Positions 9,089-58,197 of a stretch of 64,000 bases of DNA are shown piece by piece. The stretch spans positions 2,537 through 66,536 of the forward strand of contig CAZPGE010000003.1 of assembly GCA_964586255.1 (NCBI GenBank), in the 5' to 3' direction. The stretch's first letter is position 1. Every line of letters starts with the position of its first letter. The notes below the pieces were generated by a model. The model made no database searches. It had not been told where the DNA came from and worked only from the letters and a program-made list of their open reading frames with translations. The position numbers were made by a program, and so were the translations under genes. The stretch comes from an uncultured Candidatus Saccharibacteria bacterium. GTDB lineage: Bacteria > Patescibacteriota > Minisyncoccia > Phycocordibacterales > UBA2100.

Positions 9089-10248
9089 AGCCAGTCTTCA
9101 CGGTGAGCGGCTTTCTCATAATCGCCGCATGTGCTTTTGCGCTTATATTTTTTGCTGATGTTCGCTCTGCGCATAGTGAAGCCCAGCGCATCGTGGAGAT
9201 TTGCTCAGGAGAATCAGCACATGCCGAGTGTTACGAACGGGAGGTTCCGAGATTGCTTCCCGACTATTCACTCACGCAGGCCTTCGACGTCATACGTCAG
9301 ATTCGGTTAATCGACCCTGCGTACCAATTTTGTCACGTGCTTGCGCATAAACTCGGAGAGAGAGTCGTCGCTGAAGACCCCGACAAATGGATAGATGCCA
9401 TCCCGCTCAATCCGACGGATGGCCTGTGTTCAAATGGATATATTCACGGGGTGTTGGGTGGCCGATTTCGAGCAGAGGTTCTTGAACCGGCGGCTCTCAG
9501 AAAACTCATACCAGACTTCACGAGAGCATGCGCGTCGAGGAAAGAGTGGCGCTCCAGCGAACTGGACCGCGCCATATGCAGCCACGGCATGGGGCATCTC
9601 TATATGTTTATCACCGATGCGGACATTCCGCTTTCCCTTTCGCTTTGTGAAGACACGATGCCTGAGCAGCTGAGGCGCGTATGCCGCGAGGGTGTATACA
9701 TGCAAATTTATCAGCCGCTCGAACCGGATGACTATCTACTCATTGAGCGCATGCCCATAAAGCCGACGAAAGAAACACTCCGTTCCTTCTGTGCACGATA
9801 CACGAAAGATGAGTATGAGGGCGCATGTCTGCGAGAGGGCTGGCCATTTTTCCGAGAAGAGCTAAAGACTGGCGAAGGCATAACGAAATTTTGCTCAGGC
9901 CAGCCAAATGACCGAGAAGAGATAGCGTGCTTCGAATCCACGCTCGCACTCTCGGGCAGATTCAATCTAGGGAATCAGGCCAAGGCGCTCTCGCTGTGCA
10001 ACGAGGTTGCGGATAAATGGAAGGCGATGTGTTATTCGAGTGCGGCACGCGCGATACTTGAAGAGGACAGGGCAGAAGGGAAAAAGGCTGTCGCATTTTG
10101 TAAGAGCGCGGCAAACGATCAGCAAGACGAGTGTCTCGGGCAGCTTGCAGACACTGCCAGCTTCGTTTTCGGCAACTCCTCCGAACAGAAAAGGTTTTGT
10201 TCTCTCCTCCCAGTCCAGCTTAAGGAGCGTTGCCTGGGACAGCCATAG
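9085..10248 (+). CDS. N-terminally anchored Cys/His-rich repeat protein (family member 3)
   Basis: ATGA overlap with the upstream gene. TM helix (FLIIAACAFALIFFA). Motifs include QFCHVLAHKLGE, CSNGYIHGVLGG and ICSHGMGHLYMF. Confidence 0.7.
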   Translation: MKPVFTVSGFLIIAACAFALIFFADVRSAHSEAQRIVEICSGESAHAECYEREVPRLLPDYSLTQAFDVIRQIRLIDPAYQFCHVLAHKLGERVVAEDPDKWIDAIPLNPTDGLCSNGYIHGVLGGRFRAEVLEPAALRKLIPDFTRACASRKEWRSSELDRAICSHGMGHLYMFITDADIPLSLSLCEDTMPEQLRRVCREGVYMQIYQPLEPDDYLLIERMPIKPTKETLRSFCARYTKDEYEGACLREGWPFFREELKTGEGITKFCSGQPNDREEIACFESTLALSGRFNLGNQAKALSLCNEVADKWKAMCYSSAARAILEEDRAEGKKAVAFCKSAANDQQDECLGQLADTASFVFGNSSEQKRFCSLLPVQLKERCLGQP

Positions 10249-48743: not shown

Positions 48744-48780
48744 ATGACGGAGTTCGTAACTCCGTCATATTGTTTTAGTA
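48744..48780 (+). terminator. Hairpin plus T-run after gyrB (the region also holds a second hairpin at 48711-48728 on the convergent gene's side)
   Basis: atgacggagt-tcgta-actccgtcat followed by attgtttta. Confidence 0.45.
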
Positions 48781-49749
48781 GATTGGGTACTGATACGGAG
48801 CGTTGTAGTTGTACGGATAGCTTCCGCTTATGTACTGAGAGTCGGTGTTGTTGACCTCATTGCTCTCAGCTGCAGTATTCGATGGGTCGACAATCACATA
48901 TACCTGACCAGGGATTGCTTGCGTGAATCGCAGCGTGTTGACGATGTACGAGCCAGGAGCGAGCGAAGACTGTAGCGGTGACATGTAGGTGTATGGCTGC
49001 GCTGTCGGAATCTGTGCAGTGAAGTAGTAGCTGCCGCTGTTTCCCGTGCCGATGTTGGAGATGTTAAACGTCACTGTACCGTTGCCGTACTGGTCTATCG
49101 AGACCGATGTGATGGTGACGGCGAGATCACCGAGGCCATACGCGGCAGGTTTCGCAGGTGTCGGTGTTGGCGTCGCGGGCGTGATTGGTTTCTTTGGCTC
49201 CGTGACGACAGGAGTCGTCGGCGTACTCGGCGCGGGGGTGCCGGAAGATGCGAGGACCGTCATCGTGACCGAACCTTCTGCTGGGGTGGACGATGTAGCG
49301 CTTGGGATGAAGAGCACAGAGAGGGGAGTCTTTACCGATGAGGTGCCGGTGAGCATCGGGAGGATGGTCGCGCTCGTCGTCGCTGTGCCGAGCGTATATG
49401 CGGTGCCGCACGGGATAGTCGTAAATGTCTGCACAGCCGAAGGTGTCGAGAAACGGAGTCCCTCAGTGCATGGATAGATAAGTGCGTATGAGCCAGCTTC
49501 ACTCGTCTTATGTTTCCACGAAATACGCGCGCTCTGACCGGAGTTTACAGAAGCGGGAGCGGTGACAGATATCGATGTGTCGCCCTTTCCGTCAAAGAGT
49601 GAAGAGAAAAAGCCGCCTGAAATCGAGAGGAGATGTATAAGACCCCAAATAATTATCACCACAAGGATAATCGAACCTATGATGGCGAGGATATTCGCAA
49701 GCATCATCGTGCCGGCGCCCTTTTGGTTTGTGTCTGACATGGCCGGCAT
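48775..49749 (-). CDS. N-terminally anchored, Thr/Pro-rich surface protein with a C-terminal CARDB-like domain
   Basis: TM helix (LANILAIIGSIILVVIIIWGLI), a TP-rich linker (PAPSTPTTPVVTEPKKPITPATPTPTP), then a C-terminal region (VIVDPSNTAAESNEVNNT) that resembles the CARDB motif. Start chosen at MPAMSD. Confidence 0.55.
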   Translation of the reverse strand: MPAMSDTNQKGAGTMMLANILAIIGSIILVVIIIWGLIHLLSISGGFFSSLFDGKGDTSISVTAPASVNSGQSARISWKHKTSEAGSYALIYPCTEGLRFSTPSAVQTFTTIPCGTAYTLGTATTSATILPMLTGTSSVKTPLSVLFIPSATSSTPAEGSVTMTVLASSGTPAPSTPTTPVVTEPKKPITPATPTPTPAKPAAYGLGDLAVTITSVSIDQYGNGTVTFNISNIGTGNSGSYYFTAQIPTAQPYTYMSPLQSSLAPGSYIVNTLRFTQAIPGQVYVIVDPSNTAAESNEVNNTDSQYISGSYPYNYNAPYQYPIY

Positions 49750-49815
49750 CTTTACATGAATATATGCGTTTGTCAAGTGCTCTGGGAGGGGCCTATTGAC
49801 AAAGAGGCACATAAG

Positions 49816-50520
49816 ATGTATGATTCACCTATGAATCCTACCCACGGCACAACAAAGCCACAAAAAACCGCTCCCAAGAGCGTCTTTCTTGCTGCGACGC
49901 TCGTGGTCTTCTTTCTCTCGCTCTCAGCGGCAGATTCTGTCGGCTTTGTTCCCGATTACATCGATGGGACGAATACAGAGTACGAGACCGTCGCAGAGAC
50001 ACTCTCTGAAGAGACGGTAGCTCTCTCGAGTCTTCCTGAGCTTGGTCCAAGTACGCCTGTTGTCGAAGAAATCGCCGTAAAGCCGGAGCGCCTCATCATC
50101 TCTGCTATCGACCTCGACCTCTCCATACAGAATCCAGGGACGCGCGACATCGGCGAGCTCGATGCGCTTCTTAAAAATGGTCCTGCGAGGTACGTCGACT
50201 CTGCGATGCTCGGCGAGAACGGCGGCAACATGATTATCTTCGCACATTCGTCGAATCTTCCTGTAGTGCGCAATCAGATGTACAAAGCGTTCAACAAAGT
50301 ACCGACACTGGTCGCGGGGGATACCATCACCATCCAGGCTGATGGAAAGAGTTACTTGTACATGGTCACGTCGGTAAAAAAGGCAGATGCGTCGGACACT
50401 CGAATCGACATGTCGCGCACGCTTGGTACGCGTCTCACCCTCGTGACGTGCGATACCCTCACTTCAAAAGATGCACGCTTTGTGCTGGAGGCCTCATTTG
50501 TTGGCTCGTACGACATATAA
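49816..50520 (+). CDS. Sortase-family transpeptidase
   Basis: N-terminal TM anchor. Candidate catalytic His (NMIIFAHSS), Cys (TRLTLVTCDT) and a downstream Arg (KDARFVLEA). Confidence 0.65.
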   Translation: MYDSPMNPTHGTTKPQKTAPKSVFLAATLVVFFLSLSAADSVGFVPDYIDGTNTEYETVAETLSEETVALSSLPELGPSTPVVEEIAVKPERLIISAIDLDLSIQNPGTRDIGELDALLKNGPARYVDSAMLGENGGNMIIFAHSSNLPVVRNQMYKAFNKVPTLVAGDTITIQADGKSYLYMVTSVKKADASDTRIDMSRTLGTRLTLVTCDTLTSKDARFVLEASFVGSYDI

Positions 50521-50524
50521 ATCT

Positions 50525-51100
50525 ATGAACACCATGAAAACACTCATCATCCCTCTCGCGTGTGCCGCCATCCTCCTTGGTGCAAACACGGCATCTGCCG
50601 CATCCAACTGCGGATGCGATGAAATCGTAGTTTCGCGCAGCACGATAGTCGCACAGCCTGTCACCATTGCGGGTCCCGTCACTGTAGGACGACCGGCTAC
50701 AGTCGGCCGTCCAGCGACAGTCGGTCGCCCCGTAAACGTAGGGCGCCCTGTGAGTGTGGGCTATCCCGTCATAATCGGCCGACCCATCAGTCTTGGGTAT
50801 CCGGTTGAAATCGGCTACGCGGTAGACGTCGCACACGCTGTCGAAATCGCGCATGCGGTAGACATCGCACGCGCCGTCGATATCGGTAAGGTGGTCGACA
50901 TTGCGCACGCAGTCACGATTGGTTCTGTTGCAAACATCGGCTCCGTCGTCTCGATTGGTCATGCTGTGGAAATCGCGCGTGCGGTAGATGTAGGACGCCC
51001 CGTCGAGATTGCACATGCGATAGATATTCATCGCCAGACGAAGCCCGACAATTCCGTCGAATCAAATCTCGAGCAGATGCGTCGCATCTTAGCGAATTAG
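50525..51100 (+). CDS. Secreted protein built almost entirely of ~20 hexapeptide repeats ([VIL]-[GA]-x-[PA]-V-x; left-handed-beta-helix-like periodicity)
   Basis: Signal peptide (LIIPLACAAILLGANTASA), then VGRPATVGRPATVGRPVNVGRPVSVGYPVIIGRPISLGYPVEIGYAVDVAHAVEIAHAVDIARAVDIGKVVDIAHAVTIGSVANIG... Starts 5 nt after the sortase stop. Confidence 0.55.
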   Translation: MNTMKTLIIPLACAAILLGANTASAASNCGCDEIVVSRSTIVAQPVTIAGPVTVGRPATVGRPATVGRPVNVGRPVSVGYPVIIGRPISLGYPVEIGYAVDVAHAVEIAHAVDIARAVDIGKVVDIAHAVTIGSVANIGSVVSIGHAVEIARAVDVGRPVEIAHAIDIHRQTKPDNSVESNLEQMRRILAN

Positions 51101-51179
51101 GGTATTCATTGACATTTGTCTTCTGCGTGGCACAATAGCCACGGCAAACGCGGCATAGAGTCGCAGAGAGGAGTCTGGA

Positions 51180-51617
51180 ATGCCCATCCATCATACGAAA
51201 ATGCCTGCGAGCATTTGGGTCGTTTTCTACATCGGCGTGCTCGCAAGCATCGTCTACTCCGCCGCAATCTTCTTCCTCACGATTTTCCCGCACTGGTTCG
51301 GTGCAACAAGTCGTGGCCATATCACAGAGTGGTGGGGAATTGCGGGCGGCGTATTCATCTGCCTGCAGATCATCCCGGTCGTCTCGAGGCCCGTGCACAA
51401 GGATGCGTGGGAGATTGCGGACCACCTCACGTCCTGGATCCCTATTGTGATCTTGCTCGGTGCATTTCCGGCGATCTGGTTTACAAGGGGCATCATGCCC
51501 GATCGTTGGACCTGGCAGGTCTACGGAACTGGCCTTGCGCTGAGTATCGCGGACGTGCTTCTGACGTTCGTGTCGCTGAAGATTTCGCGCTTTGCTCAGC
51601 GGATTACCTCGGCGTAG
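51180..51617 (+). CDS. Small 4-TM membrane protein
   Basis: 145 aa with four hydrophobic helices. Confidence 0.5.
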   Translation: MPIHHTKMPASIWVVFYIGVLASIVYSAAIFFLTIFPHWFGATSRGHITEWWGIAGGVFICLQIIPVVSRPVHKDAWEIADHLTSWIPIVILLGAFPAIWFTRGIMPDRWTWQVYGTGLALSIADVLLTFVSLKISRFAQRITSA

Positions 51618-51646
51618 ATCTGCTGTTTGAGCGGGGATAGTTCTCA

Positions 51647-51702
51647 AATTGAGCGGGGCTGCAAGGCCCCGCTCTTGACTTTTTGATATATTAGTGTACA
51701 AT
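51647..51702 (+). promoter_or_regulatory. Terminator-promoter module A: GC-rich hairpin fused to TTGACT (-35), 16-nt spacer, TACAAT (-10)
   Basis: Hairpin gagcggggc-tggcaag-gccccgctc, then cTTGACTtttt...gtgTACAATt. The next gene begins about 38 nt downstream with a GGGAGA Shine-Dalgarno. Confidence 0.55.
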
Positions 51703-51739
51703 TTCAGGAGCGCAACCTTGTTTTTAACGGGAGAGACCC

Positions 51740-52225
51740 ATGAATGGAATGCAGCGATTCGTGTTCGTCGGTTCGGGGGTCGTTGCCCTCGTCTATGCGG
51801 CCTTCATCGCCACGGTGCTGTCGGCCAACTTCACGCCTGTCTACAGCCTCAGCGTGGACGAAGCAATCACCTCGACCGCCAACGTCATTGGATGGACGGC
51901 AATTCTCGCGTTCGTCCATGTCATCTTCCAGATCGCCCTCGACCGTGTCGAGCTGCAGGAGGAGACCGTCGGCGAGAAGGCGTGGGATATGCTCACGACG
52001 TTCATGCCGATTGTCGTATTCGTCCTCGTTTCCTTCTATATGGCGGGCAAGACGCCGAAAGTGGCGTGGTGGTCGACGCTGTATAGCTGGGTGTGGTGGA
52101 TCGTTCTCGCCTCGCTCATCGTCGACCTGTACAACGCCTGGAAGAGGGGGAGGGTCTGGCTGAGCTCGGCCGCGGCGCATGCGCCGGCGGCTCATCCTCC
52201 GGCAGGAGGTGCAGGAAACCCGTAA
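51740..52225 (+). CDS. Small 4-TM membrane protein (possible analogue of 51180..51617) with a Pro/Ala/His-rich tail
   Basis: 161 aa with four hydrophobic helices. Tail SSAAAHAPAAHPPAGGAGNP. Confidence 0.5.
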   Translation: MNGMQRFVFVGSGVVALVYAAFIATVLSANFTPVYSLSVDEAITSTANVIGWTAILAFVHVIFQIALDRVELQEETVGEKAWDMLTTFMPIVVFVLVSFYMAGKTPKVAWWSTLYSWVWWIVLASLIVDLYNAWKRGRVWLSSAAAHAPAAHPPAGGAGNP

Positions 52226-52245
52226 TACGGGGTGCAAGCTCTATC

Positions 52246-52305
52246 GGGGCGCGTCGGGATTCACTCCCGCCGCGCCCTTGACTTTTGTATACTATTTGCT
52301 ATAAT
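52246..52305 (+). promoter_or_regulatory. Terminator-promoter module B: GC-rich hairpin fused to TTGACT, 16-nt spacer, extended -10 TGcTATAAT
   Basis: ggggcgcg...cgcgccc hairpin, then cTTGACTtttgtatactattTGcTATAATaaaa. Confidence 0.6.
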
Positions 52306-52356
52306 AAAAACCGAATAAAACTATCGGTTTTGGCCCTAACATTGAGAGGAAATGCC

Positions 52357-52656
52357 ATGTCAGCTGGCGGTCATGATACCCACGGAAGTGGTGCGCTCGG
52401 GAAAGTTGCTGGCTGGGTGGCAGTTGCCACCTTCGCCGTCATTGTCGTCAACGGAGCCTTCAACAGGCTCGATGGCAAGAACTTCTTCGACGGGATCTTC
52501 AGCGGAGGTTCGCGCTCGCCGACAAGCTTCCAGGGTGTGAACAATCCGGGACGGCGTGTCGGCTATGTCGCCGGCGCTCCGACAACTGCACGGGAATGTG
52601 CCGCGCGTGGGGGCTCTGTCGTCAACGGCGGCATGTCCTGCAGCGGCTACCAATAG
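52357..52656 (+). CDS. Small N-terminally anchored protein with the conserved C-terminal two-Cys domain (family member P1)
   Basis: The start follows the promoter and a GAGAGGA Shine-Dalgarno. TM helix (VAGWVAVATFAVIVV). C-terminus RVGYVAGAPTTARECAARGGSVVNGGMSCSGYQ. Confidence 0.55.
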   Translation: MSAGGHDTHGSGALGKVAGWVAVATFAVIVVNGAFNRLDGKNFFDGIFSGGSRSPTSFQGVNNPGRRVGYVAGAPTTARECAARGGSVVNGGMSCSGYQ

Positions 52657-52668
52657 AGAGGAGATGTC

Positions 52669-52953
52669 ATGTCGAACGATACGCCGAAACATGAGTCCGG
52701 CTTCGAAAAGGGTATGGGCATTGGCTTCGGAATAGTGTGGGCCATTGCGCTCGTTGTTGCCGGCACCTTGCTCTTGATCATGATCTTCGAGCGATTCGGT
52801 CCGCCGAGCGCTTCGTACCGATCTCGTCAGGCTGCGGTCATCGGCACTCCCGGCAGCGGTTACGTCGCAGGAGCGCCCGTCAATGCGACGGAATGCATCG
52901 CGCGCGCTGGCCATGTCGTCTACGGCGGCAAGGGATGTCGTGACTACCGGTAA
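52669..52953 (+). CDS. Small N-terminally anchored protein with the conserved C-terminal two-Cys domain (P2)
   Basis: GAGGAG Shine-Dalgarno. TM helix (GIGFGIVWAIALVVAGTLLLIMIF). C-terminus GSGYVAGAPVNATECIARAGHVVYGGKGCRDYR. Confidence 0.55.
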   Translation: MSNDTPKHESGFEKGMGIGFGIVWAIALVVAGTLLLIMIFERFGPPSASYRSRQAAVIGTPGSGYVAGAPVNATECIARAGHVVYGGKGCRDYR

Positions 52954-52971
52954 CCATGGTCTTTACAACAA

Positions 52972-53020
52972 GGGAAGCGGCCTCGCCTCAGGCTTGGCCG
53001 CTCCCCGCTACTTTCTGAAA
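52972..53020 (+). terminator. GC-rich hairpin after P2 (a near-duplicate of the hairpin after P3)
   Basis: gggaagcggcc-tcgcctcaggctt-ggccgctcccc. Confidence 0.4.
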
Positions 53021-53104
53021 ATCCGATACGGTTTGATACATCGAACTGTGCCGGACTTTCACGAAAGGCGTGAGAGCACGAGTTCTTTGAAGGAGAGAAT
53101 ACAG

Positions 53105-53515
53105 ATGACCAAGATTGTCAGGTTGTTCTTCGGGTTGGCGATGCTCGCTATCTCGCAGATGGCTATGTCGAATGAGGCATCGGCTCAGCGCCGATGCGGC
53201 GATTTTATCCAGAACGGCACCATCTACGTCGCGAGTCGCGCGAGGGATTGTGACCGCGGCACTTCCTGGCAAAGGGATCGGCGCGGAAACCGCATCTGGG
53301 GCATGTCGCGTGCTTCATCGCATCGGGCCTACTATCACGGTCGTCATGCCGCGGCTCGACAGTACGGGCGTACGCGTTCGTACGCGTATCGTCCTGCAGC
53401 GGTTGCGGCGGTCACGACCAATTACATCCCCGGTGCGCCGCGAAATGTCGCGGAGTGCTATGCTCGCGGTGGCACGCTCGCCAACGGCGGACGCGGATGT
53501 GCCGGTTATCGCTGA
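53105..53515 (+). CDS. Secreted protein with the conserved C-terminal two-Cys domain (P3)
   Basis: AAGGAGAG Shine-Dalgarno. Signal peptide (LFFGLAMLAISQMAMSNEASA). C-terminus TNYIPGAPRNVAECYARGGTLANGGRGCAGYR. Confidence 0.55.
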   Translation: MTKIVRLFFGLAMLAISQMAMSNEASAQRRCGDFIQNGTIYVASRARDCDRGTSWQRDRRGNRIWGMSRASSHRAYYHGRHAAARQYGRTRSYAYRPAAVAAVTTNYIPGAPRNVAECYARGGTLANGGRGCAGYR

Positions 53516-53525
53516 AGTTCTTCCC

Positions 53526-53570
53526 GGAAGCGGCCTCGCCTGAGGCCTGGCCGCTTCCCAAGATTTTTCT
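53526..53570 (+). terminator. Intrinsic terminator after P3
   Basis: Perfect 10-bp stem ggaagcggcc / ggccgcttcc, then caagatttttctccc. Confidence 0.6.
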
Positions 53571-53709
53571 CCCACACTTGCGAATATCATTTCAGAGGTA
53601 TATGCCTCTGGATAGTCTTCGGAAGAAGATATTATGTTGAGCCGCTCGGACCGAAAGGGAAGAGCATCCTGTTCTACGACAATGCCCATGATGGGCGATG
53701 GAGAAGACC

Positions 53710-54369
53710 ATGAAGATGAGAATCGGTTTGGCAGCGCTTGCGCTGCTCGCGTTCATCCCCGCGGCGAATGCCAACGGGGCTGACAATAAGGCCTGCGAAC
53801 CCGACTGCTACAAGACGGTCACGAAGTCGAAGATCGTCGGATACAAGTGGGCGCGCGTGCCCGTTCGCAAGAAGTACGAGGTCAAGGAAAAGGTCACTTG
53901 CAAGGACGACTGCTCGCCTGTGAAGGTGAACGCCGGTCCCGGTGTCGACATTCCCTCGCCACCACCCGCGGTCGTCATTCAGAACCAGAAGGTCCTGGTG
54001 ATCACCCGCCCGGTCGTCGAATATGCCCCGGTTCCGCCGGTCCGCATTCTCCCGGCACCGGAGGTGGTCTACGACCAGCCGACCCTCGTACGCGCTCCGC
54101 CTCCGCCGATGGTGCAGGTGGTTCGCGCTCCGACGCAGTGCCGGCCGATCGTGCGTGCGACCTGCAATGGTTGCCAGCCCGTGCGGACCGCGTGCGTGCC
54201 TCCGGGTCATCATGGTCCGGCGAACGCTCATGGTGCCCCGCAGCAGACTGCAGCGGTCGGCTCGCCCGGCGGCGGTTATATCGCCGGCGCACCGACGAAT
54301 GCGCAGGAGTGCATCGCGCGCGGTGGCCAGCTCGCCAACGAAGGCCGCGGTTGCGCCGGCTACCGCTGA
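53710..54369 (+). CDS. Secreted Cys/Pro-rich protein with the conserved C-terminal two-Cys domain (P4)
   Basis: Signal peptide (MKMRIGLAALALLAFIPAANANG). Pro-rich middle region with 8 further Cys. C-terminus GGGYIAGAPTNAQECIARGGQLANEGRGCAGYR. Confidence 0.55.
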   Translation: MKMRIGLAALALLAFIPAANANGADNKACEPDCYKTVTKSKIVGYKWARVPVRKKYEVKEKVTCKDDCSPVKVNAGPGVDIPSPPPAVVIQNQKVLVITRPVVEYAPVPPVRILPAPEVVYDQPTLVRAPPPPMVQVVRAPTQCRPIVRATCNGCQPVRTACVPPGHHGPANAHGAPQQTAAVGSPGGGYIAGAPTNAQECIARGGQLANEGRGCAGYR

Positions 54370-54429
54370 TGCTCCAAGTTCTATCCTAGGCGACTCATTC
54401 GCCCAGGCAGCCCATTATCTCGGGCATCC

Positions 54430-54498
54430 GAGAGGCTCCATCGCAAGATGGGGCCTCTTTCTTTTTATACTTGACAAACCAATAGTATCTGCTATAAT
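54430..54498 (+). promoter_or_regulatory. Terminator-promoter module C: hairpin plus T-run, TTGACA, 16-nt spacer, extended -10 TGcTATAAT
   Basis: agaggc...gcctct hairpin plus ttcttttta, then cTTGACAaaccaatagtatcTGcTATAATag. Confidence 0.6.
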
Positions 54499-54581
54499 AG
54501 ATAGAGTACTGCAAACCCGCTTCGCGAAAGCGAAGCATCGTTCTCAAAGCGCCCAATTCGGGCATCATAGAGGAGACTTCC

Positions 54582-55145
54582 ATGAACAAATTGTTCACGC
54601 TGACCGCCGCTGTTCTCGCTTTGACCGCTTCCGTCGCATCTGCGCAGGATGTCGGCAGGTCGAAGGACATCGTCGAGTCCGCGCCCGCCGCTGCCGCTCC
54701 GGCACCCGTTCCGGGCCCGGTATCGACGTTCCCGACGGCCACTGCGCCGTCGTGCACGCTGATGCAGGTCCGCGTCGAAGTCCTGAAGAAGCCGGCGCGA
54801 TTCGTTGTCGCTGCCTTCGATCAGGCGTTCAACGAGACCGGCTCGGATGCGGACAAGGCCAAGTTCGTCGACGAGATGAAGACGTGCAACGGCGATGTCA
54901 TCGCCGTGCGCCCGAACTCGAAGTACGTCTCGGTCGACATTCACGTCGTGTCCGATACGCAGGGCTGGGCTACGATCAAGGTGCCCGCTTCGCGCAAGGC
55001 CAAGATGGTCGCGACGTTCCACTCGTCGGTTCCTGAGCTGAAGGCGACCCCGTTCTGGGCGTCTGCACAGTTCGCCGACCTGACGCAGGTGGATCTGAAG
55101 ACGGTGAATCCGGGCACGGTCGCGCAGAAGCACGACAAGCGCTGA
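54582..55145 (+). CDS. Secreted hypothetical protein
   Basis: Signal peptide (LTAAVLALTASVASAQD). 187 aa with a GC-rich codon bias like the rest of the cassette array. Confidence 0.5.
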   Translation: MNKLFTLTAAVLALTASVASAQDVGRSKDIVESAPAAAAPAPVPGPVSTFPTATAPSCTLMQVRVEVLKKPARFVVAAFDQAFNETGSDADKAKFVDEMKTCNGDVIAVRPNSKYVSVDIHVVSDTQGWATIKVPASRKAKMVATFHSSVPELKATPFWASAQFADLTQVDLKTVNPGTVAQKHDKR

Positions 55146-55398
55146 TATTCATCGGCAAGTTCTCCTTCGAGCGACGACGCAAGGCCTCTCAGCCTTGTGT
55201 CGTCGCCGAAACTTTTCGCAAACATCTGTCTTTCGAGATGAAAGACGACAGACAGATTTTTACGAACCCTTTTAGGTCAAAAAGGGAAGTAGGAATCGGC
55301 TGTGTACGAAAGGCGCACGACCTTGACAAGGGCCGATACGCGTGATAGTACGCTCACATTAGTAGGGTAGGAATTACTAAATAGAAACGATTAATTAT

Positions 55399-56829
55399 AT
55401 GAACATCAATAAAATAGTCGCAGTTGGTCTCTGCGCAGTAGTGTTCGGCATCATGCCGACCGTCGCGAACGCACAGTACGATTTCTCAGATTCGTATGTC
55501 GATTACGGTGGTTTTTCGGATTACTCAGGCGGCTACGACTTCTCGGACTCGTACGTCGACTACGGTGGTTTTAGTGACTACACCGGCACTGGCGGCTACG
55601 ACTTCTCGGACTCATACGTCGACTACAGTGGCTTTGGTGACTACACCGGCACTGGTGGCTACGACTTCTCGGATTCGTATGTCAACTATGACGGATTCAA
55701 CAACTACTCAGATTTCCCGAACACGTACTCGGATTTCCCAACGGATTGCGGTGGCGTATCCTGCACGTACTCGGATTTCCCGACCACGTACTCGGACTTC
55801 CCGACGTACAGCGATTTCCCAACGACGTACTCGGACTTCCCGACGTACAGCGACTTCCCATCAGACTGCGGCTCAAGCTGTGGCCAGGTGACGTACAACG
55901 AGTCGTGCGGCTGCTACGAGACTCGCGGCGGTAGCTACGGCGGCGGATTCGGTGGTGGCTTTGGCGGCGGCTTCAAGATGCCTTCCTTCGGTGGCATGTC
56001 GATTGTTCCTCCGAGCTATCCGACTCCTCCTCGTCCTACCCCGACCCCGCACTACCCTCAGCCGACTCCTCCTCGTCCTACCCCGACGACTCCGTCGACT
56101 CCAATCAACATCAACAACGTGAACACGAACACGAATACCAACACCAACGTGAACACGAATGTGACGACCGTCACGCCAGTAACCCCGGGCCCCGTCGTGC
56201 AGTATGTCTACCCGTACTCTCCGCAGTATCCGACATACCCGACCCAGGCACCGTTCTGTGTCATCACAGCAAGCAATCAGTACAACTATGGCAACGGCAT
56301 GATAACGCTCACGTGGAGCTCAAGTGGAGCCACGAGTGCCTACATCACACCGGGCCTCGGTCAGGTCGCTCCCAACGGTTCGACGACGCTCTATGGGTAC
56401 AACAACACTGTGTACACCATGACAGTCTCCGGACAGGGTGGTTCGTACACGTGCCACACACAGTCGTACGTCAATCCGATAACTCCGGTGAGCCCGTACG
56501 TATCGCTTACGCAGATACCGTACACAGGTCTTGCACTTGGTCCTATCGGCAACGCGCTCTACTGGATGGGTCTCATCTCAGTAGCGGTAGCCGGTGCGTA
56601 CCTCTTGGTCTACTACAGGGGCGGCATGCTTGCCCTCGCAGGCCAGACTCTCTCAGCTTCGATTGCACGTCGTTCGCAGGAAGAGGATGTATCTCCGGTG
56701 GCAGCTCCTCATCAGGAAAAGGTAGCGGCTCTCGCTCACCTTCCGGTACAGGAAACGACGACTCGTGACGCGATGAAGATTGTCCGCTCGGAAGACGGAA
56801 CTCCTCGCCTCGTCATCTCTCGCGCCTAA
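55399..56829 (+). CDS. Large low-complexity secreted protein with a C-terminal IPYTG motif, hydrophobic helix and charged tail (candidate sortase substrate or surface-layer protein)
   Basis: Signal peptide. Repeats (YDFSDSYVDYGGFSDYTGTGG x4; TYSDFPT x7; GGGFGGGFGGGF; PTPPRPTPT; NTNTNTNVNTN). Then SLTQIPYTGLALGPIGNALYWMGLISVAVAGAYLLVYYRGG. Confidence 0.6.
   Translation: MNINKIVAVGLCAVVFGIMPTVANAQYDFSDSYVDYGGFSDYSGGYDFSDSYVDYGGFSDYTGTGGYDFSDSYVDYSGFGDYTGTGGYDFSDSYVNYDGFNNYSDFPNTYSDFPTDCGGVSCTYSDFPTTYSDFPTYSDFPTTYSDFPTYSDFPSDCGSSCGQVTYNESCGCYETRGGSYGGGFGGGFGGGFKMPSFGGMSIVPPSYPTPPRPTPTPHYPQPTPPRPTPTTPSTPININNVNTNTNTNTNVNTNVTTVTPVTPGPVVQYVYPYSPQYPTYPTQAPFCVITASNQYNYGNGMITLTWSSSGATSAYITPGLGQVAPNGSTTLYGYNNTVYTMTVSGQGGSYTCHTQSYVNPITPVSPYVSLTQIPYTGLALGPIGNALYWMGLISVAVAGAYLLVYYRGGMLALAGQTLSASIARRSQEEDVSPVAAPHQEKVAALAHLPVQETTTRDAMKIVRSEDGTPRLVISRA
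55477..55870 (+). repeat. Coding tandem-repeat region (63-nt and 21-nt units) inside 55399..56829
   Basis: Repeated tacgacttctcggactcgtacgtcgactacggtggttt... and gtactcggacttcccgac... units. Confidence 0.7.
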
Positions 56830-56964: not shown

Positions 56965-58197
56965 TTACGAGCGGGACGTTATTTCTTGCTTTAGTTTTGC
57001 GACGAGGTCGGGGATAGCGAGCACATCTTTCCCGCCATCGCGGCCTTCGAGTGTCGCGGTCGATGCATTCACTTCTTTGTCGCCGAGCACGAGTGTGTAG
57101 GGGACTTTCTCCAGCTTGCTCTGTCGTATGCGCTTACCGAGGCTGTCGTCGGCATCAATTTCGGCGCGAATCCCCGCTTCGCGGAGTTGCGTGAGGACTT
57201 CCGATGCGTACGCGGCATGCTTCTCCGAGACCGGAAGTATCTTCGCTTGCACCGGCGCGAGCCAGAGAGGGAAGGCGCCACCGTAGTGCTCGATGAGGAA
57301 TGCGACGATGCGCTCTATTGCGCCTATGGAGGAGCGGTGCACGACAAACGCGCGCTTCTGCGTGCCGTCTGCGGCGGTGTAGGTGAGGTCGAATCGGCTC
57401 GGCATACAGAAATCGTACTGCACCGTAAACGCGGTATCTTCCTTGCCGTTTACATTTTTCATCTGGATATCAATCTTGGGACCATAGAATGCTGCCTCGT
57501 CTCTGGCTTCTTCAAATTTCTCGCCGCGTGCTTTGAGGACTTCGCGCAAAAGGTGTTCGCCCTTCTCCCATGCGGCATCGTCTTGGAAATATTTCTCAGT
57601 ATTTGAGCGGTCACCGAGCGAGAGTCGGAAGTGGTAGTTCTCACCCATCTTGAGACCAAAGACCTTTGCGATGTCGACGATAAGGTCGAGCGCCTTGGCG
57701 ACCTCCTCCGCTGCCTGCTCCTCCGTGGCACAGATGATGTGTGCATCGGCAAGGCAAAACGAGCGCACACGCTGCAGGCCCATGAGCTCGCCGGATTGCT
57801 CGTAGCGGTAGAGCTTAGCGAGCTCCGCGATACGCATGGGGAGTTCGCGGTAGCTGTGCGGCTTTGCAAGGTAGAGCTCGAAGTGATGGGGGCATGTCAT
57901 GGGGCGGAGCATGAACTCTTCGTCGTCGACCTGGATAGGTGCGTACATCGAGTCCTTGTAGTGCGGGTAGTGCCCGCTCTTGCGATAGAGATCGAGCTTG
58001 GCGATATCGGGCGTGTAGACGTGGAGATAGCCGCGCTTGATTTCCTCATCGACGATAAACCGCTCAAGCTCACGGCGTATCACCGAGCCCTTGGGTGTCC
58101 AGAGGGGGAGGCCCTTGCCGACGGCATCGGAAAATGTAAAAAGGTCGAGCTCCTTCCCGAGCTTCTTGTGGTCTCTCTCGTGTGCGTCGTGTTCCAT
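56965..58197 (-). CDS. thrS: Threonine--tRNA ligase, catalytic plus anticodon-binding domains only (no N-terminal TGS/editing domains)
   Basis: It begins directly with the catalytic-domain N-terminus (RDHKKLGKELDLF). Class II motifs (FRNE-like MLRPMTCPHH; RVRSFCLADAHI...). C-terminal anticodon-binding domain (VQAKILPVSE...). 410 aa. Confidence 0.85.
   Translation of the reverse strand: MEHDAHERDHKKLGKELDLFTFSDAVGKGLPLWTPKGSVIRRELERFIVDEEIKRGYLHVYTPDIAKLDLYRKSGHYPHYKDSMYAPIQVDDEEFMLRPMTCPHHFELYLAKPHSYRELPMRIAELAKLYRYEQSGELMGLQRVRSFCLADAHIICATEEQAAEEVAKALDLIVDIAKVFGLKMGENYHFRLSLGDRSNTEKYFQDDAAWEKGEHLLREVLKARGEKFEEARDEAAFYGPKIDIQMKNVNGKEDTAFTVQYDFCMPSRFDLTYTAADGTQKRAFVVHRSSIGAIERIVAFLIEHYGGAFPLWLAPVQAKILPVSEKHAAYASEVLTQLREAGIRAEIDADDSLGKRIRQSKLEKVPYTLVLGDKEVNASTATLEGRDGGKDVLAIPDLVAKLKQEITSRS

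Follow-up and report, generated by a model that had tools for sequence, protein, structure and literature searches.

A rare two-cysteine C-terminal module, probably an extracytoplasmic tag, on envelope proteins of a conserved Paceibacterota locus

Several well-described systems, such as dockerin/cohesin pairs, S-layer homology (SLH) domains and LPXTG sorting signals, place a short constant C-terminal module on unrelated N-terminal parts. Here we describe a locus of similar outline in a 64,000-nucleotide (nt) stretch of DNA from an uncultured bacterium (contig CAZPGE010000003.1; the whole stretch is called the window below), where four genes, C1 to C4, all end in a motif of about 30 amino acids (aa) with two cysteines, which we call the module. 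As in those systems, the genes cluster in an envelope locus beside a sortase gene, and a Pro-rich stalk leads up to the module, comparable to the wall-spanning regions of Gram-positive surface proteins. In sequence and fold, however, the module resembles none of the systems named above; it lacks the hydrophobic segment and the LPXTG-like motif of an LPXTG signal and is thus not a sortase signal, it contains no Ca-binding repeats of the dockerin kind, at about 30 residues and one predicted disulfide it is far smaller than the modules of those systems, and the receptor that we propose for it is the same module on a membrane anchor in place of a separate cohesin-type domain. The principle of marking variable surface proteins with an unchanging C-terminal tag is familiar, whereas the module itself and a conserved RNA element that accompanies its genes are undescribed in the libraries searched.

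An attached life on host cells is assumed for bacteria of the candidate phyla radiation (CPR), whose surface proteins are, to our knowledge, almost entirely unannotated. The locus represents a compact, conserved and apparently highly expressed envelope set whose signature allows similar proteins to be recognised in other Paceibacterota, and its mini-domain is small enough for synthesis and for tests of self-association or ligand binding.

The shared module and its conserved locus

The four module genes are laid out as follows.

52357-52656, + strand: C1, 99 aa, with a His/Gly-rich N-terminus, one transmembrane (TM) helix, a linker and the module (52561-52653)
52669-52953, + strand: C2, 94 aa, with one TM helix and the C-terminal module (52858-52950)
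53105-53515, + strand: C3, 136 aa, with a signal peptide, an N-terminal domain, a basic linker and the module (53420-53512)
53698/53710-54369, + strand: C4, 223 aa (219 aa from the ATG at 53710), with the module at 54274-54366

A preliminary description of the window, made from its letters alone, had proposed that the genes beginning at 52357, 52669, 53105 and 53710 share a C-terminal two-Cys motif behind otherwise unrelated N-terminal regions. We found that this holds, since 12 of 40 aligned columns, both cysteines included, are invariant in C1-C4, the common motif being Y-[VI]-x-G-A-P-x4-E-C-x2-R-G-G-loop-G-x-x-C-x-G-Y-[RQ]. Hydropathy also agreed with the two TM anchors, the two signal peptides and the one Cys/Pro-rich N-terminal region that had been claimed, the signal-like segments being those of C3 and C4 and the Cys/Pro-rich protein being C4. 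The start codon of C2 follows the stop codon of C1 after 12 nt. The small N-terminal domain of C3 contains two Cys of its own (RRCGDF…RDCDRG), while C4 runs from its signal peptide through a beta-hairpin region flanked by Cys pairs and a long, Pro-rich, mostly disordered stalk to the module.

Searching outside the window, we compared a profile of the four module sequences with 1.84 billion representative proteins in an exhaustive HMMER search (E<=1e-3) and obtained 35 matches with a best E of 2e-16, of which five are long repeat proteins with fragmentary matches, while the other roughly 30 clusters contain the motif in full, in nearly all cases at the very C-terminal end. From 33 sequences the consensus is [TP]-P-G-G-G-Y-[VI]-x-G-A-P-[RT]-[NS]-x-x-E-C-x-[AR]-R-G-G-(loop of 6, 8 or 13)-C-x-G-[YF]-x, and the module as a whole is hydrophilic and Arg-rich, with no TM segment. 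A homologue search with the full-length proteins gave 10 matches; a word-indexed search with module alignments of 36-40 aa returned nothing, apparently because of an index limit, as the exhaustive profile search succeeded. When a back-translated DNA pattern of the module was scanned across one genome per GTDB species, eight loci were found, six of which, in four genomes that are all Paceibacterota metagenome-assembled genomes (MAGs), were confirmed by the module hidden Markov model (HMM); the remaining two (Dehalococcoidia, Pseudomonas) failed the HMM and were taken as chance. The same pattern detected a single contig in a scan of JGI metagenomes, a duplicate of L002 from the genome JBAYUL01, and it was not found in viral contigs. 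The relatives are labelled Parcubacteria group, Candidatus Paceibacterota or Minisyncoccota, in keeping with the CPR origin that had been suspected, and their module proteins are annotated as 'hypothetical protein'. The motif is thus present and conserved outside the array, which refutes the possibility of a local repeat artefact, and we conclude that the module family is real, rare and mostly limited to one CPR lineage.

The novelty that had been claimed for the domain also stood up. None of the seven proteins of the locus (C1-C4 and the products of genes A, B and D, listed below) matches Pfam, NCBIfam or PADLOC; the sole PHROGs match is weak (E 0.003, unknown function) and falls in the TM region of C2, outside the module; and in the PDB the module has no convincing match, foldon tags (E 1.8-8) being the only weak sequence hits that recur. 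Relative to the libraries searched, the module is a previously undescribed mini-domain.

The remaining genes of the locus and its conserved flanks are the following.

48775-49812, - strand: TM-anchored CARDB protein, conserved upstream flank
49756-50520, + strand: sortase, conserved upstream flank
about 50525-51100, + strand: secreted protein of 6-residue periodic repeats, conserved upstream flank
51180-51617, + strand: A, 145 aa, four TM segments by hydropathy scan
51740-52225, + strand: B, a 161-aa polytopic membrane protein, three TM segments by hydropathy and a weaker fourth by eye
54582-55145, + strand: D, a 187-aa secreted protein, signal peptide read by eye
55399-56829, + strand: 476-aa repeat protein with YSDFP repeats and an immunoglobulin-like region, conserved downstream flank

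All seven genes A, B, C1-C4 and D lie on the same strand. Both A and B had been described as four-TM proteins, which is clear for A and less so for B; the two are marginally similar to each other and would be weak paralogues (E 0.07). A role of A and B like that of DsbB or VKOR was rejected, as B contains no Cys and the only one in A lies within a TM helix, which leaves no loop Cys pairs.

We compared the window with the genomes VMEY01 (L003, L006), CAIRSC01 (L008, L009), JBAYUL01 (L002), JARLIE01 (L005, L018) and JBTSDM01 (L010) and with the Logan contigs L019, L021 and L023. Almost every context long enough to read proved to be the same Paceibacterota chromosomal locus, in which PheS, PheT, GyrB, CARDB (-), the sortase, the secreted 6-residue-repeat protein and a variable insert are followed by a TM-anchored module protein, (C2-like), (C3-like), a C4-like secreted module protein and a D-like secreted protein, and these in turn by a large repeat protein (SQIPYTG, TM helix, K/R), ThrRS (-) and DnaE. 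The Pfam-annotated genes within 10 kb on either side are those for PheST, GyrB, CARDB, sortase, ThrRS, DnaE, RNase HII and L32. D has a positional orthologue with a '(I/M)K(A/G/T)CN' motif behind the C4-like gene in VMEY01, CAIRSC01, JBAYUL01 and JARLIE01. The insert is made up either of 4-TM proteins or of a soluble pair of about 600 and about 85 aa: A and B are present in the window, VMEY01 and JBTSDM01, and an A-like gene in JARLIE01, whereas CAIRSC01 lacks A and B at that position and has soluble proteins of 664 and 83 aa instead, and L023 has a homologous soluble pair followed by a longer polytopic open reading frame (ORF; 235/285 aa) whose relation to A and B was not compared. The soluble pair (about 600-660 aa plus 83-89 aa) lies at L008 993-3242 and L023 3227-5309 and in L023 has no precomputed Pfam match. 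As the order is kept although ThrRS identity between the compared genomes falls as low as 43-47%, the locus is old and vertically inherited, and we conclude that, rather than a mobile cassette array, it is an inherited Paceibacterota envelope locus next to the housekeeping sortase.

This context also bears on the bacteriocin or toxin cassettes with which the preliminary description had compared the array, and in which the two-Cys C-terminal peptides would be secreted antimicrobials or effectors and A and B their immunity proteins. Like class II bacteriocin/immunity pairs, the locus combines small two-Cys products and strong promoters with small polytopic membrane proteins alongside, these lying immediately upstream of the module genes, and an A homologue directly precedes a C1-like gene in JARLIE01 as well (L018 9352-9906; BLASTP E 2e-6). 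Unlike such pairs, the locus keeps a fixed syntenic chromosomal position, from gyrB/sortase to thrS/dnaE, in all Paceibacterota genomes examined, and it has no consistent immunity gene, the membrane proteins A and B being replaced in CAIRSC01 and a different, uncompared polytopic ORF standing in L023. The products differ from class II bacteriocins too, being membrane-anchored or large secreted stalk proteins: C1-like proteins have cytoplasmic N-termini of 30-90 residues and uncleaved TM anchors, C1, C2 and their relatives have an internal TM segment after 15-90 residues where a cleavable leader would be expected, and C3 and C4 are stalk proteins of 136-223 aa. No ABC transporter, C39 peptidase or modification enzyme for leader processing and export is encoded within 10 kb, the constant C-terminus behind a variable N-terminus is the reverse of polymorphic toxins, and PADLOC gave no match, PHROGs only the weak one in the C2 TM region, and the viral contigs no motif. 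We therefore regard a toxin cassette as highly improbable.

The divergence between the window and VMEY01 sets the module apart from the proteins that carry it. The flanking GyrB, CARDB, sortase and A genes show a synonymous divergence (dS) of 0.5-1.0 and a ratio of nonsynonymous to synonymous divergence (dN/dS) of 0.01-0.06, while dN/dS is 0.21-0.54 for C1-C4 and D and 0.11-0.14 for the module alone (C2, C3, C4). Amino acid identity is 0.59 for C2, 0.40 for C4 and 0.51 for D against at least 0.94 for the neighbours. These sequence comparisons indicate N-terminal parts that evolve fast and a module under purifying selection, and C2, C4 and D, which keep only 40-59% identity between strains that agree to about 97% in their housekeeping proteins, are candidate host- or phage-interaction surfaces. 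We also noted that the dS of C1 and C3 against VMEY01 is only 0.24-0.29, below that of the flanking genes, a mosaic divergence that suggests recombination or strong codon constraint. Separately, three independent MAG assemblies (VMEY01, CAIRSC01, JBTSDM01) break within the locus, right behind the C1-like or the C2 gene, which suggests strain heterogeneity or repeats; the CAIRSC01 contigs L008 and L009 overlap by about 140 nt that span the module 3' end and a conserved hairpin described below.

What the module may do

The second reading offered in the preliminary description, surface proteins with a common cell-wall or partner-binding tag, was the one that our analysis supported, and we consider the module to be probably a shared extracytoplasmic tag of envelope proteins. 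Its placement outside the membrane, stapled by a disulfide, is predicted from the paired cysteines, from its presence on proteins with signal peptides, and from the long, Lys-rich N-termini without signal peptides of C1-like proteins in the relatives.

The same few N-terminal types recur across genomes in front of this tag: a C1-type with a His/Gly-rich cytoplasmic start and one TM helix, a C2-type with a short N-terminus and one TM helix, a C3-type with a signal peptide and a small two-Cys domain, and a C4-type with a signal peptide, a Cys-flanked beta-hairpin, a Pro-rich stalk and a CCPPG…PPC motif. In one protein, P0041, a C3-type N-terminal domain is joined to a different C-terminus, which points to modularity. 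Every locus that could be read across encodes at least one TM-anchored and at least one signal-peptide module protein, with the exception of L021, where a single anchored protein carries two tandem modules, no secreted partner is present and the repeat protein follows directly; this tandem-module protein is a fusion-type hint that modules pair. In addition, the loop between RGG and the second Cys has one length per genome, common to all its paralogues (window and VMEY01, 8/8/8/8; CAIRSC01, 6/6/6; JBAYUL01, L023 and L019, 6/6; JARLIE01, 13/13). The two JARLIE01 modules have in common an insert, VPS…PGRSA, that is unique to them, yet their third-codon-position identity is only 26%, which together argue for concerted evolution without recent gene conversion.

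Because anchors and secreted stalks both carry the module, co-occur and evolve in concert, and because a tandem fusion exists, we tentatively propose, with somewhat less than even confidence, that the module mediates docking among the envelope proteins. Under such a mechanism the two cysteines would staple the module by one disulfide; C1 and C2 would be tiny type-II membrane proteins (N-in, C-out) that display only the module on the outer face of the membrane; and C3 and C4 would be secreted, their modules ending basic or Pro-rich, largely disordered stalks. The modules would associate mutually or with one common co-evolving partner, so that membrane-anchored members could tether the secreted stalk proteins by their C-termini, resulting in a sortase-independent display of fast-evolving surface proteins, with the conserved hairpin and leader between the genes plausibly setting the anchor:cargo ratio. 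Docking, if true, would be a new and very economical attachment of proteins to the bacterial surface.

Several points weigh against this proposal. Module-module binding, the disulfide and the surface location are all predictions from sequence; module identity within a genome (0.64) barely exceeds that between genomes (0.61); and the matching loop lengths could reflect old gene conversion without functional coupling, or one common ligand. AlphaFold2 confidence for the module is only moderate, with shallow alignments of 8-12 sequences. Furthermore, three homologues, P0016, P0018 and P0019, stand in contexts unlike the CPR locus, indicating that the module does not require the CPR partner set and is not strictly confined to Paceibacterota. 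These three are TM proteins with a different N-terminal domain (C-x-G-A-E-T-H-W…A-L-E-D-H-I), and their contexts possibly reflect exchange with non-CPR bacteria: in P0018 (L024 2238-2813) the module is internal and the neighbours are DUF3768 and an ArdC-N protein, the latter with its best matches (about 45%) on alpha- and beta-proteobacterial plasmids, while P0019 (L027 154-408) adjoins a DoxX-like gene and P0016 lies on L022.

Some of these observations would suit a non-covalent tag for an envelope polymer (peptidoglycan, wall glycopolymer or S-layer) or a host ligand, which each protein would bind independently of the others. An Arg-rich, disulfide-stapled module, by prediction extracytoplasmic, on otherwise unrelated proteins is what such a tag might look like; the locus is dedicated to the envelope, with its sortase, CARDB and a repeat protein that resembles sortase substrates; one lineage-specific ligand would explain the loop lengths within each genome equally well; and the occurrence of the module outside the CPR locus without the partner set fits too. 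However, C1 and C2 are already anchored in the membrane and consist of little besides the module, so that wall retention would be redundant for them, no similarity was found to LysM, SLH, SH3b, choline-binding or other known wall-binding folds or profiles, and 30 residues are small for a glycan-binding site. A ligand tag is the main rival of docking, in our judgement somewhat less likely than docking itself.

Structure prediction, which had been suggested for the C-terminal domain alone and together with the 4-TM proteins or cell-wall fragments, covered single chains and, for the module alone, gave a helix plus a hairpin. In the AlphaFold2 model of the module, made with an alignment of 12 sequences, the predicted local distance difference test score (pLDDT) was 66 overall and 75-80 in the last 25 residues, with an extended YIAGAP segment, a short helix over NAQECI that includes the first Cys, and a beta-hairpin with the second. 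A model of full-length C4 contained the same module elements (pLDDT 66-73), a 28-residue beta-hairpin and a disordered Pro-rich stalk; because of its low overall confidence (pLDDT 49.6) it was excluded from the fold search.

We also weighed a relationship with the foldon of T4 fibritin, of which the module might be a distant relative or convergent analogue, acting as a trimerisation nucleus for homo- or hetero-trimers. Like the foldon, the module has about 30 residues, stands at the extreme C-terminus and starts with GY[IV]P-x-APR[DN]; the only recurring weak PDB matches were foldon tags on engineered haemagglutinin chains; and in hhalign the module profile matched the T4 foldon with P 3.8e-5 and a probability of 71%, a score that none of 200 column-shuffled profiles reached. 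However, the probability fell to 16% (P 0.0016) once the T4 sequence was replaced by a profile of six diverse fibritin foldons from phage genomes, the PDB matches (E 1.8-8) rest partly on an artificial GSPGS linker, and the Pfam scan gave no Fibritin_C match (none at E<=1). The module differs from the T4 foldon in its two invariant Cys, in the absence of the hairpin core YVRKDG-x-WV, whose D-G, Y-V-R and W-V are missing from all 33 module sequences, and in its predicted secondary structure, with a helix in place of the first foldon strand; fibritins do not conserve the 'GY', viral contigs lack the motif, and the lead arose from a search of 177,635 sequences, within chance expectation. Foldon homology is thus unsupported and, in our view, quite improbable, and we take the resemblance as an analogy rather than as a sign of kinship. 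The fullest form of the docking proposal borrows from this analogy, in that a self-recognising, disulfide-locked unit would let C1 and C2 capture C3 and C4, possibly in foldon-like oligomers, with a dedicated GGAAGCGGC RNA setting the ratio; in this full form we consider the proposal unlikely.

A further use of a conserved C-terminus would be release of the last 30 residues as a disulfide-cyclised signalling peptide, pheromone-like or directed at the host, with the N-terminal parts as mere carriers. The Gly-rich stretch (PGGG/PGSG) often found ahead of the conserved Tyr could be read as a cleavage region, and apart from the module nothing in the proteins is conserved. But that stretch is itself not conserved (RRVG in C1, VTTN in C3), the locus encodes no processing protease or exporter, and there is no evident reason to keep four such different carriers and a tandem-module protein, all of which makes this reading extremely improbable.

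Hairpins, leader and promoters

The non-coding features of the locus are the following.

51109-51136, + strand: promoter before A, TTGACA-16-TG-CACAAT, 10/12 consensus positions
51651-51702, + strand: hairpin and promoter before B, the hairpin (51651-51674, -22.9 kcal/mol) fused to TTGACTTTTT-N-TACAAT
52246-52305, + strand: hairpin and promoter before C1-C2, hairpin 52246-52277 (-25.9 kcal/mol)
52973-53006, + strand: conserved hairpin after C2, GGAAGCGGCC…GGCCGCTCCC, -25.5 kcal/mol
53526-53697, + strand: conserved hairpin after C3 (53526-53559, GGAAGCGGCC…GGCCGCTTCC) and leader to the C4 start codon
54430-54498, + strand: terminator (54430-54459 plus TCTTTTTAT, -23.9 kcal/mol) and promoter before D
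55166-55210, + strand: very stable hairpin after D, -34.4 kcal/mol, then GAAACTTTTCGCAAACATC

A hairpin GGAAGCGGC…GCCGCTTCC stands behind module genes in all lineages examined, with GGAAGCGG…CCGCTTCC located 6-25 nt past the module-gene stop codon in every one of them and nowhere else in the window or in the 20-kb L018. Its loop and inner stem vary between genomes, and the outer stem of L021 has two compensatory changes (GGAGACGGC/GCCGTCTCC). When another module gene follows, the hairpin is succeeded by a block, (G)AAAACTTCTTGCGAATATCATT, which is exact over 15 nt in four genomes, and then by a leader containing a hairpin with double changes in 5 of 8 pairs, GTCTTCGGAAGAAG, a GNRA-loop hairpin and, just ahead of the ribosome-binding site, GCGCCC…GGGC. 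In the window the leader before C4 accordingly reads CTTGCGAATATCATT, the covarying hairpin, GTCTTCGGAAGAAG, the GNRA-loop hairpin and GCCC…GGGC. Across six leader sequences 93.6% of cells were paired, compared with about 43% when the partners were slid, seven pairs showed double changes, and none of 500 shuffles reached the covariation score; with only six sequences we take the covariation support for a leader structure as moderate. No Rfam family matched the hairpin or leader at the gathering threshold, the sole above-threshold Rfam match in the window being a tRNA.

The preliminary description had taken the hairpins after C2 and C3 for near-identical terminators behind two of its promoters. 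Their near-identity is real (91% over 34 nt), but they follow C2 and C3, no sigma-70 promoter lies behind them, and the U-tract of GGAAGCGGC hairpins is weak or displaced. With intrinsic terminators and intercistronic hairpins the GGAAGCGGC…GCCGCTTCC element shares a stable GC-rich stem-loop a few nt past the stop codon and the compensatory changes of L021. It differs from intrinsic terminators in that its stem sequence is invariant between genomes whose ThrRS is only about 45% identical, in that the tract behind it is (G)AAAACTTCTTG and not a U-run, and in that it is specific to module genes and opens a leader of roughly 190 nt with covarying helices. From these comparisons we read the two hairpins as a sequence-conserved element that opens a structured leader and probably not as ordinary terminators; it may serve as a non-sigma-70 promoter, as a leader that controls translation of the gene behind it, or for attenuation or processing.

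Integron cassettes and repetitive extragenic palindromic elements were considered and rejected, the former as no integrase lies in the 20-kb neighbourhood, the stems lack attC core sites and the gene order is syntenic, the latter as the hairpin occurs only after module genes. A copy of the leader block with 2 mismatches at 49687-49701 falls inside the CARDB coding sequence and was taken as chance. The GAAACTTTTCGCAAACATC behind the D hairpin is similar to the block behind the conserved hairpins, and we observed that a (G)AAACTT-N15-16-TC(T/A)G(G/A) block behind several hairpins (window 55166-55230; leaders in L002, L009, L018, L019 and L021) resembles a promoter of the extracytoplasmic function sigma factor type (GGAACTT … TCTGA).

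Promoters of the sigma-70 type were scanned on both strands of the whole window at a threshold of at least 10 of 12 consensus positions, which yielded only eight sites, four of them inside 51.1-54.5 kb. Three had been named before and are indeed near-consensus, at 51675 (TTGACT-16-TACAAT, 10/12), 52278 (TTGACT-16-TG-TATAAT, 11/12) and 54471 (54471-54498, TTGACA-16-TG-TATAAT, a perfect 12/12), and the fourth, before A at 51109, had been overlooked; three of the four have an extended -10 TG. The claim that every -35 box is fused to a hairpin applies to two of them, since the hairpins at 51651-51674 and 52246-52277 directly abut the -35 and TTGACTTTT is T-tract and -35 at once, whereas the third, at 54430-54459, comes with a separate T-run and stands 11 nt ahead of the -35. 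The hairpins of the locus have folding energies of -23 to -34 kcal/mol, with z scores of -3.7 to -8.6 against shuffles. A GC-rich stem-loop with a U-tract, as in intrinsic terminators, was found by scan at 51651-51674 (with TTGACTTTTT) and 54430-54459 (with TCTTTTTAT), and by fold and by eye at 52246-52277 (with TTGACTTTTG), whose bulged stem is not in the scan list. The transcription units had also been described as individually terminated, which fits A, B, C1 and D, all with consensus promoters of their own, but not C2, C3 and C4, which have none. In the relatives, consensus promoters lie ahead of C1-like, C4-like or repeat-protein genes, several with the -35 fused to or inside a hairpin, and the same fusion of a hairpin with TTGACTTTTT precedes a C1-like gene in L018. 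An Rfam candidate at 54390-54466, the Bradyrhizobiaceae small RNA BjrC68, was discarded, as it scored 35.6 bits against a threshold of 39 and rests on the generic GCAA-loop terminator after C4.

The segment had been called GC-rich, with more G/C-ending codons than its surroundings, and both statements proved correct: with a GC content of 0.593, 51100-55200 ranks first among 599 windows of 4.1 kb (mean 0.544, sd 0.019), and GC at third codon positions (GC3) is 0.66-0.83 in the seven genes compared with 0.59 +/- 0.05 in 28 long ORFs of the window. High GC and GC3 recur in the C4-like and D-like genes of JBAYUL01, CAIRSC01 and JARLIE01. Since orthologues are equally GC- and GC3-rich and synteny is kept, the raised GC belongs to the genes themselves, and we rejected recent horizontal import as its source; it is probably explained by products rich in Gly, Ala, Pro and Arg together with expression-linked codon choice. 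The strong promoters and the raised GC3 suggest high expression.

Flanking genes and minor observations

At its C-terminal end the 476-aa repeat protein downstream of D carries a sortase-type signal, SLTQIPYTG with a TM helix and basic residues behind it, and it is probably a substrate of the adjoining sortase. In every genome the C-terminus of this large repeat protein has S(L/V)(T/S)QIPYTG(L/F), in which IPYTG is an unusual motif, and then a TM helix and K/R, and about 70 residues continue past that signal, ending in …PR(L/I)VI(S/T/A/N)R(A/S/V) (window 55399-56829; L002 2803-4182; L009 2210-3538; L018 11926-13401). Just behind the sortase gene, the 6-residue-repeat protein is conserved with a [AP]-V-x-[IV]-[AG]-[HRY] periodicity after a CGC motif (window about 50525-51100; L018 7264-7818; L023 1520-2110; L008 3325-3861); among PHROGs it hits several families of unknown function (best E 3e-17), and in Pfam it has a weak match to a left-handed beta-helix model.

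His-rich termini were seen in several proteins of the locus. C1-type proteins begin with His/Gly-rich stretches such as GGHDTHGSG, HGHGHD and GDHGHGGGG (window 52357-52410; L018 10001-10090), the A-like protein of JARLIE01 (9352-9906) has GGGGHEAHDHH at its C-terminal end, and B of the window (52170-52225) has AAHAPAAHPP; these are possibly metal-binding or interacting cytoplasmic tails. Finally, the ThrRS ORF of the window (56965-58197, - strand) is 410 aa long compared with 577-581 aa in JBAYUL01, CAIRSC01 and JARLIE01, so that about 170 N-terminal residues are apparently missing or separately encoded, and small ORFs follow it on the same strand.

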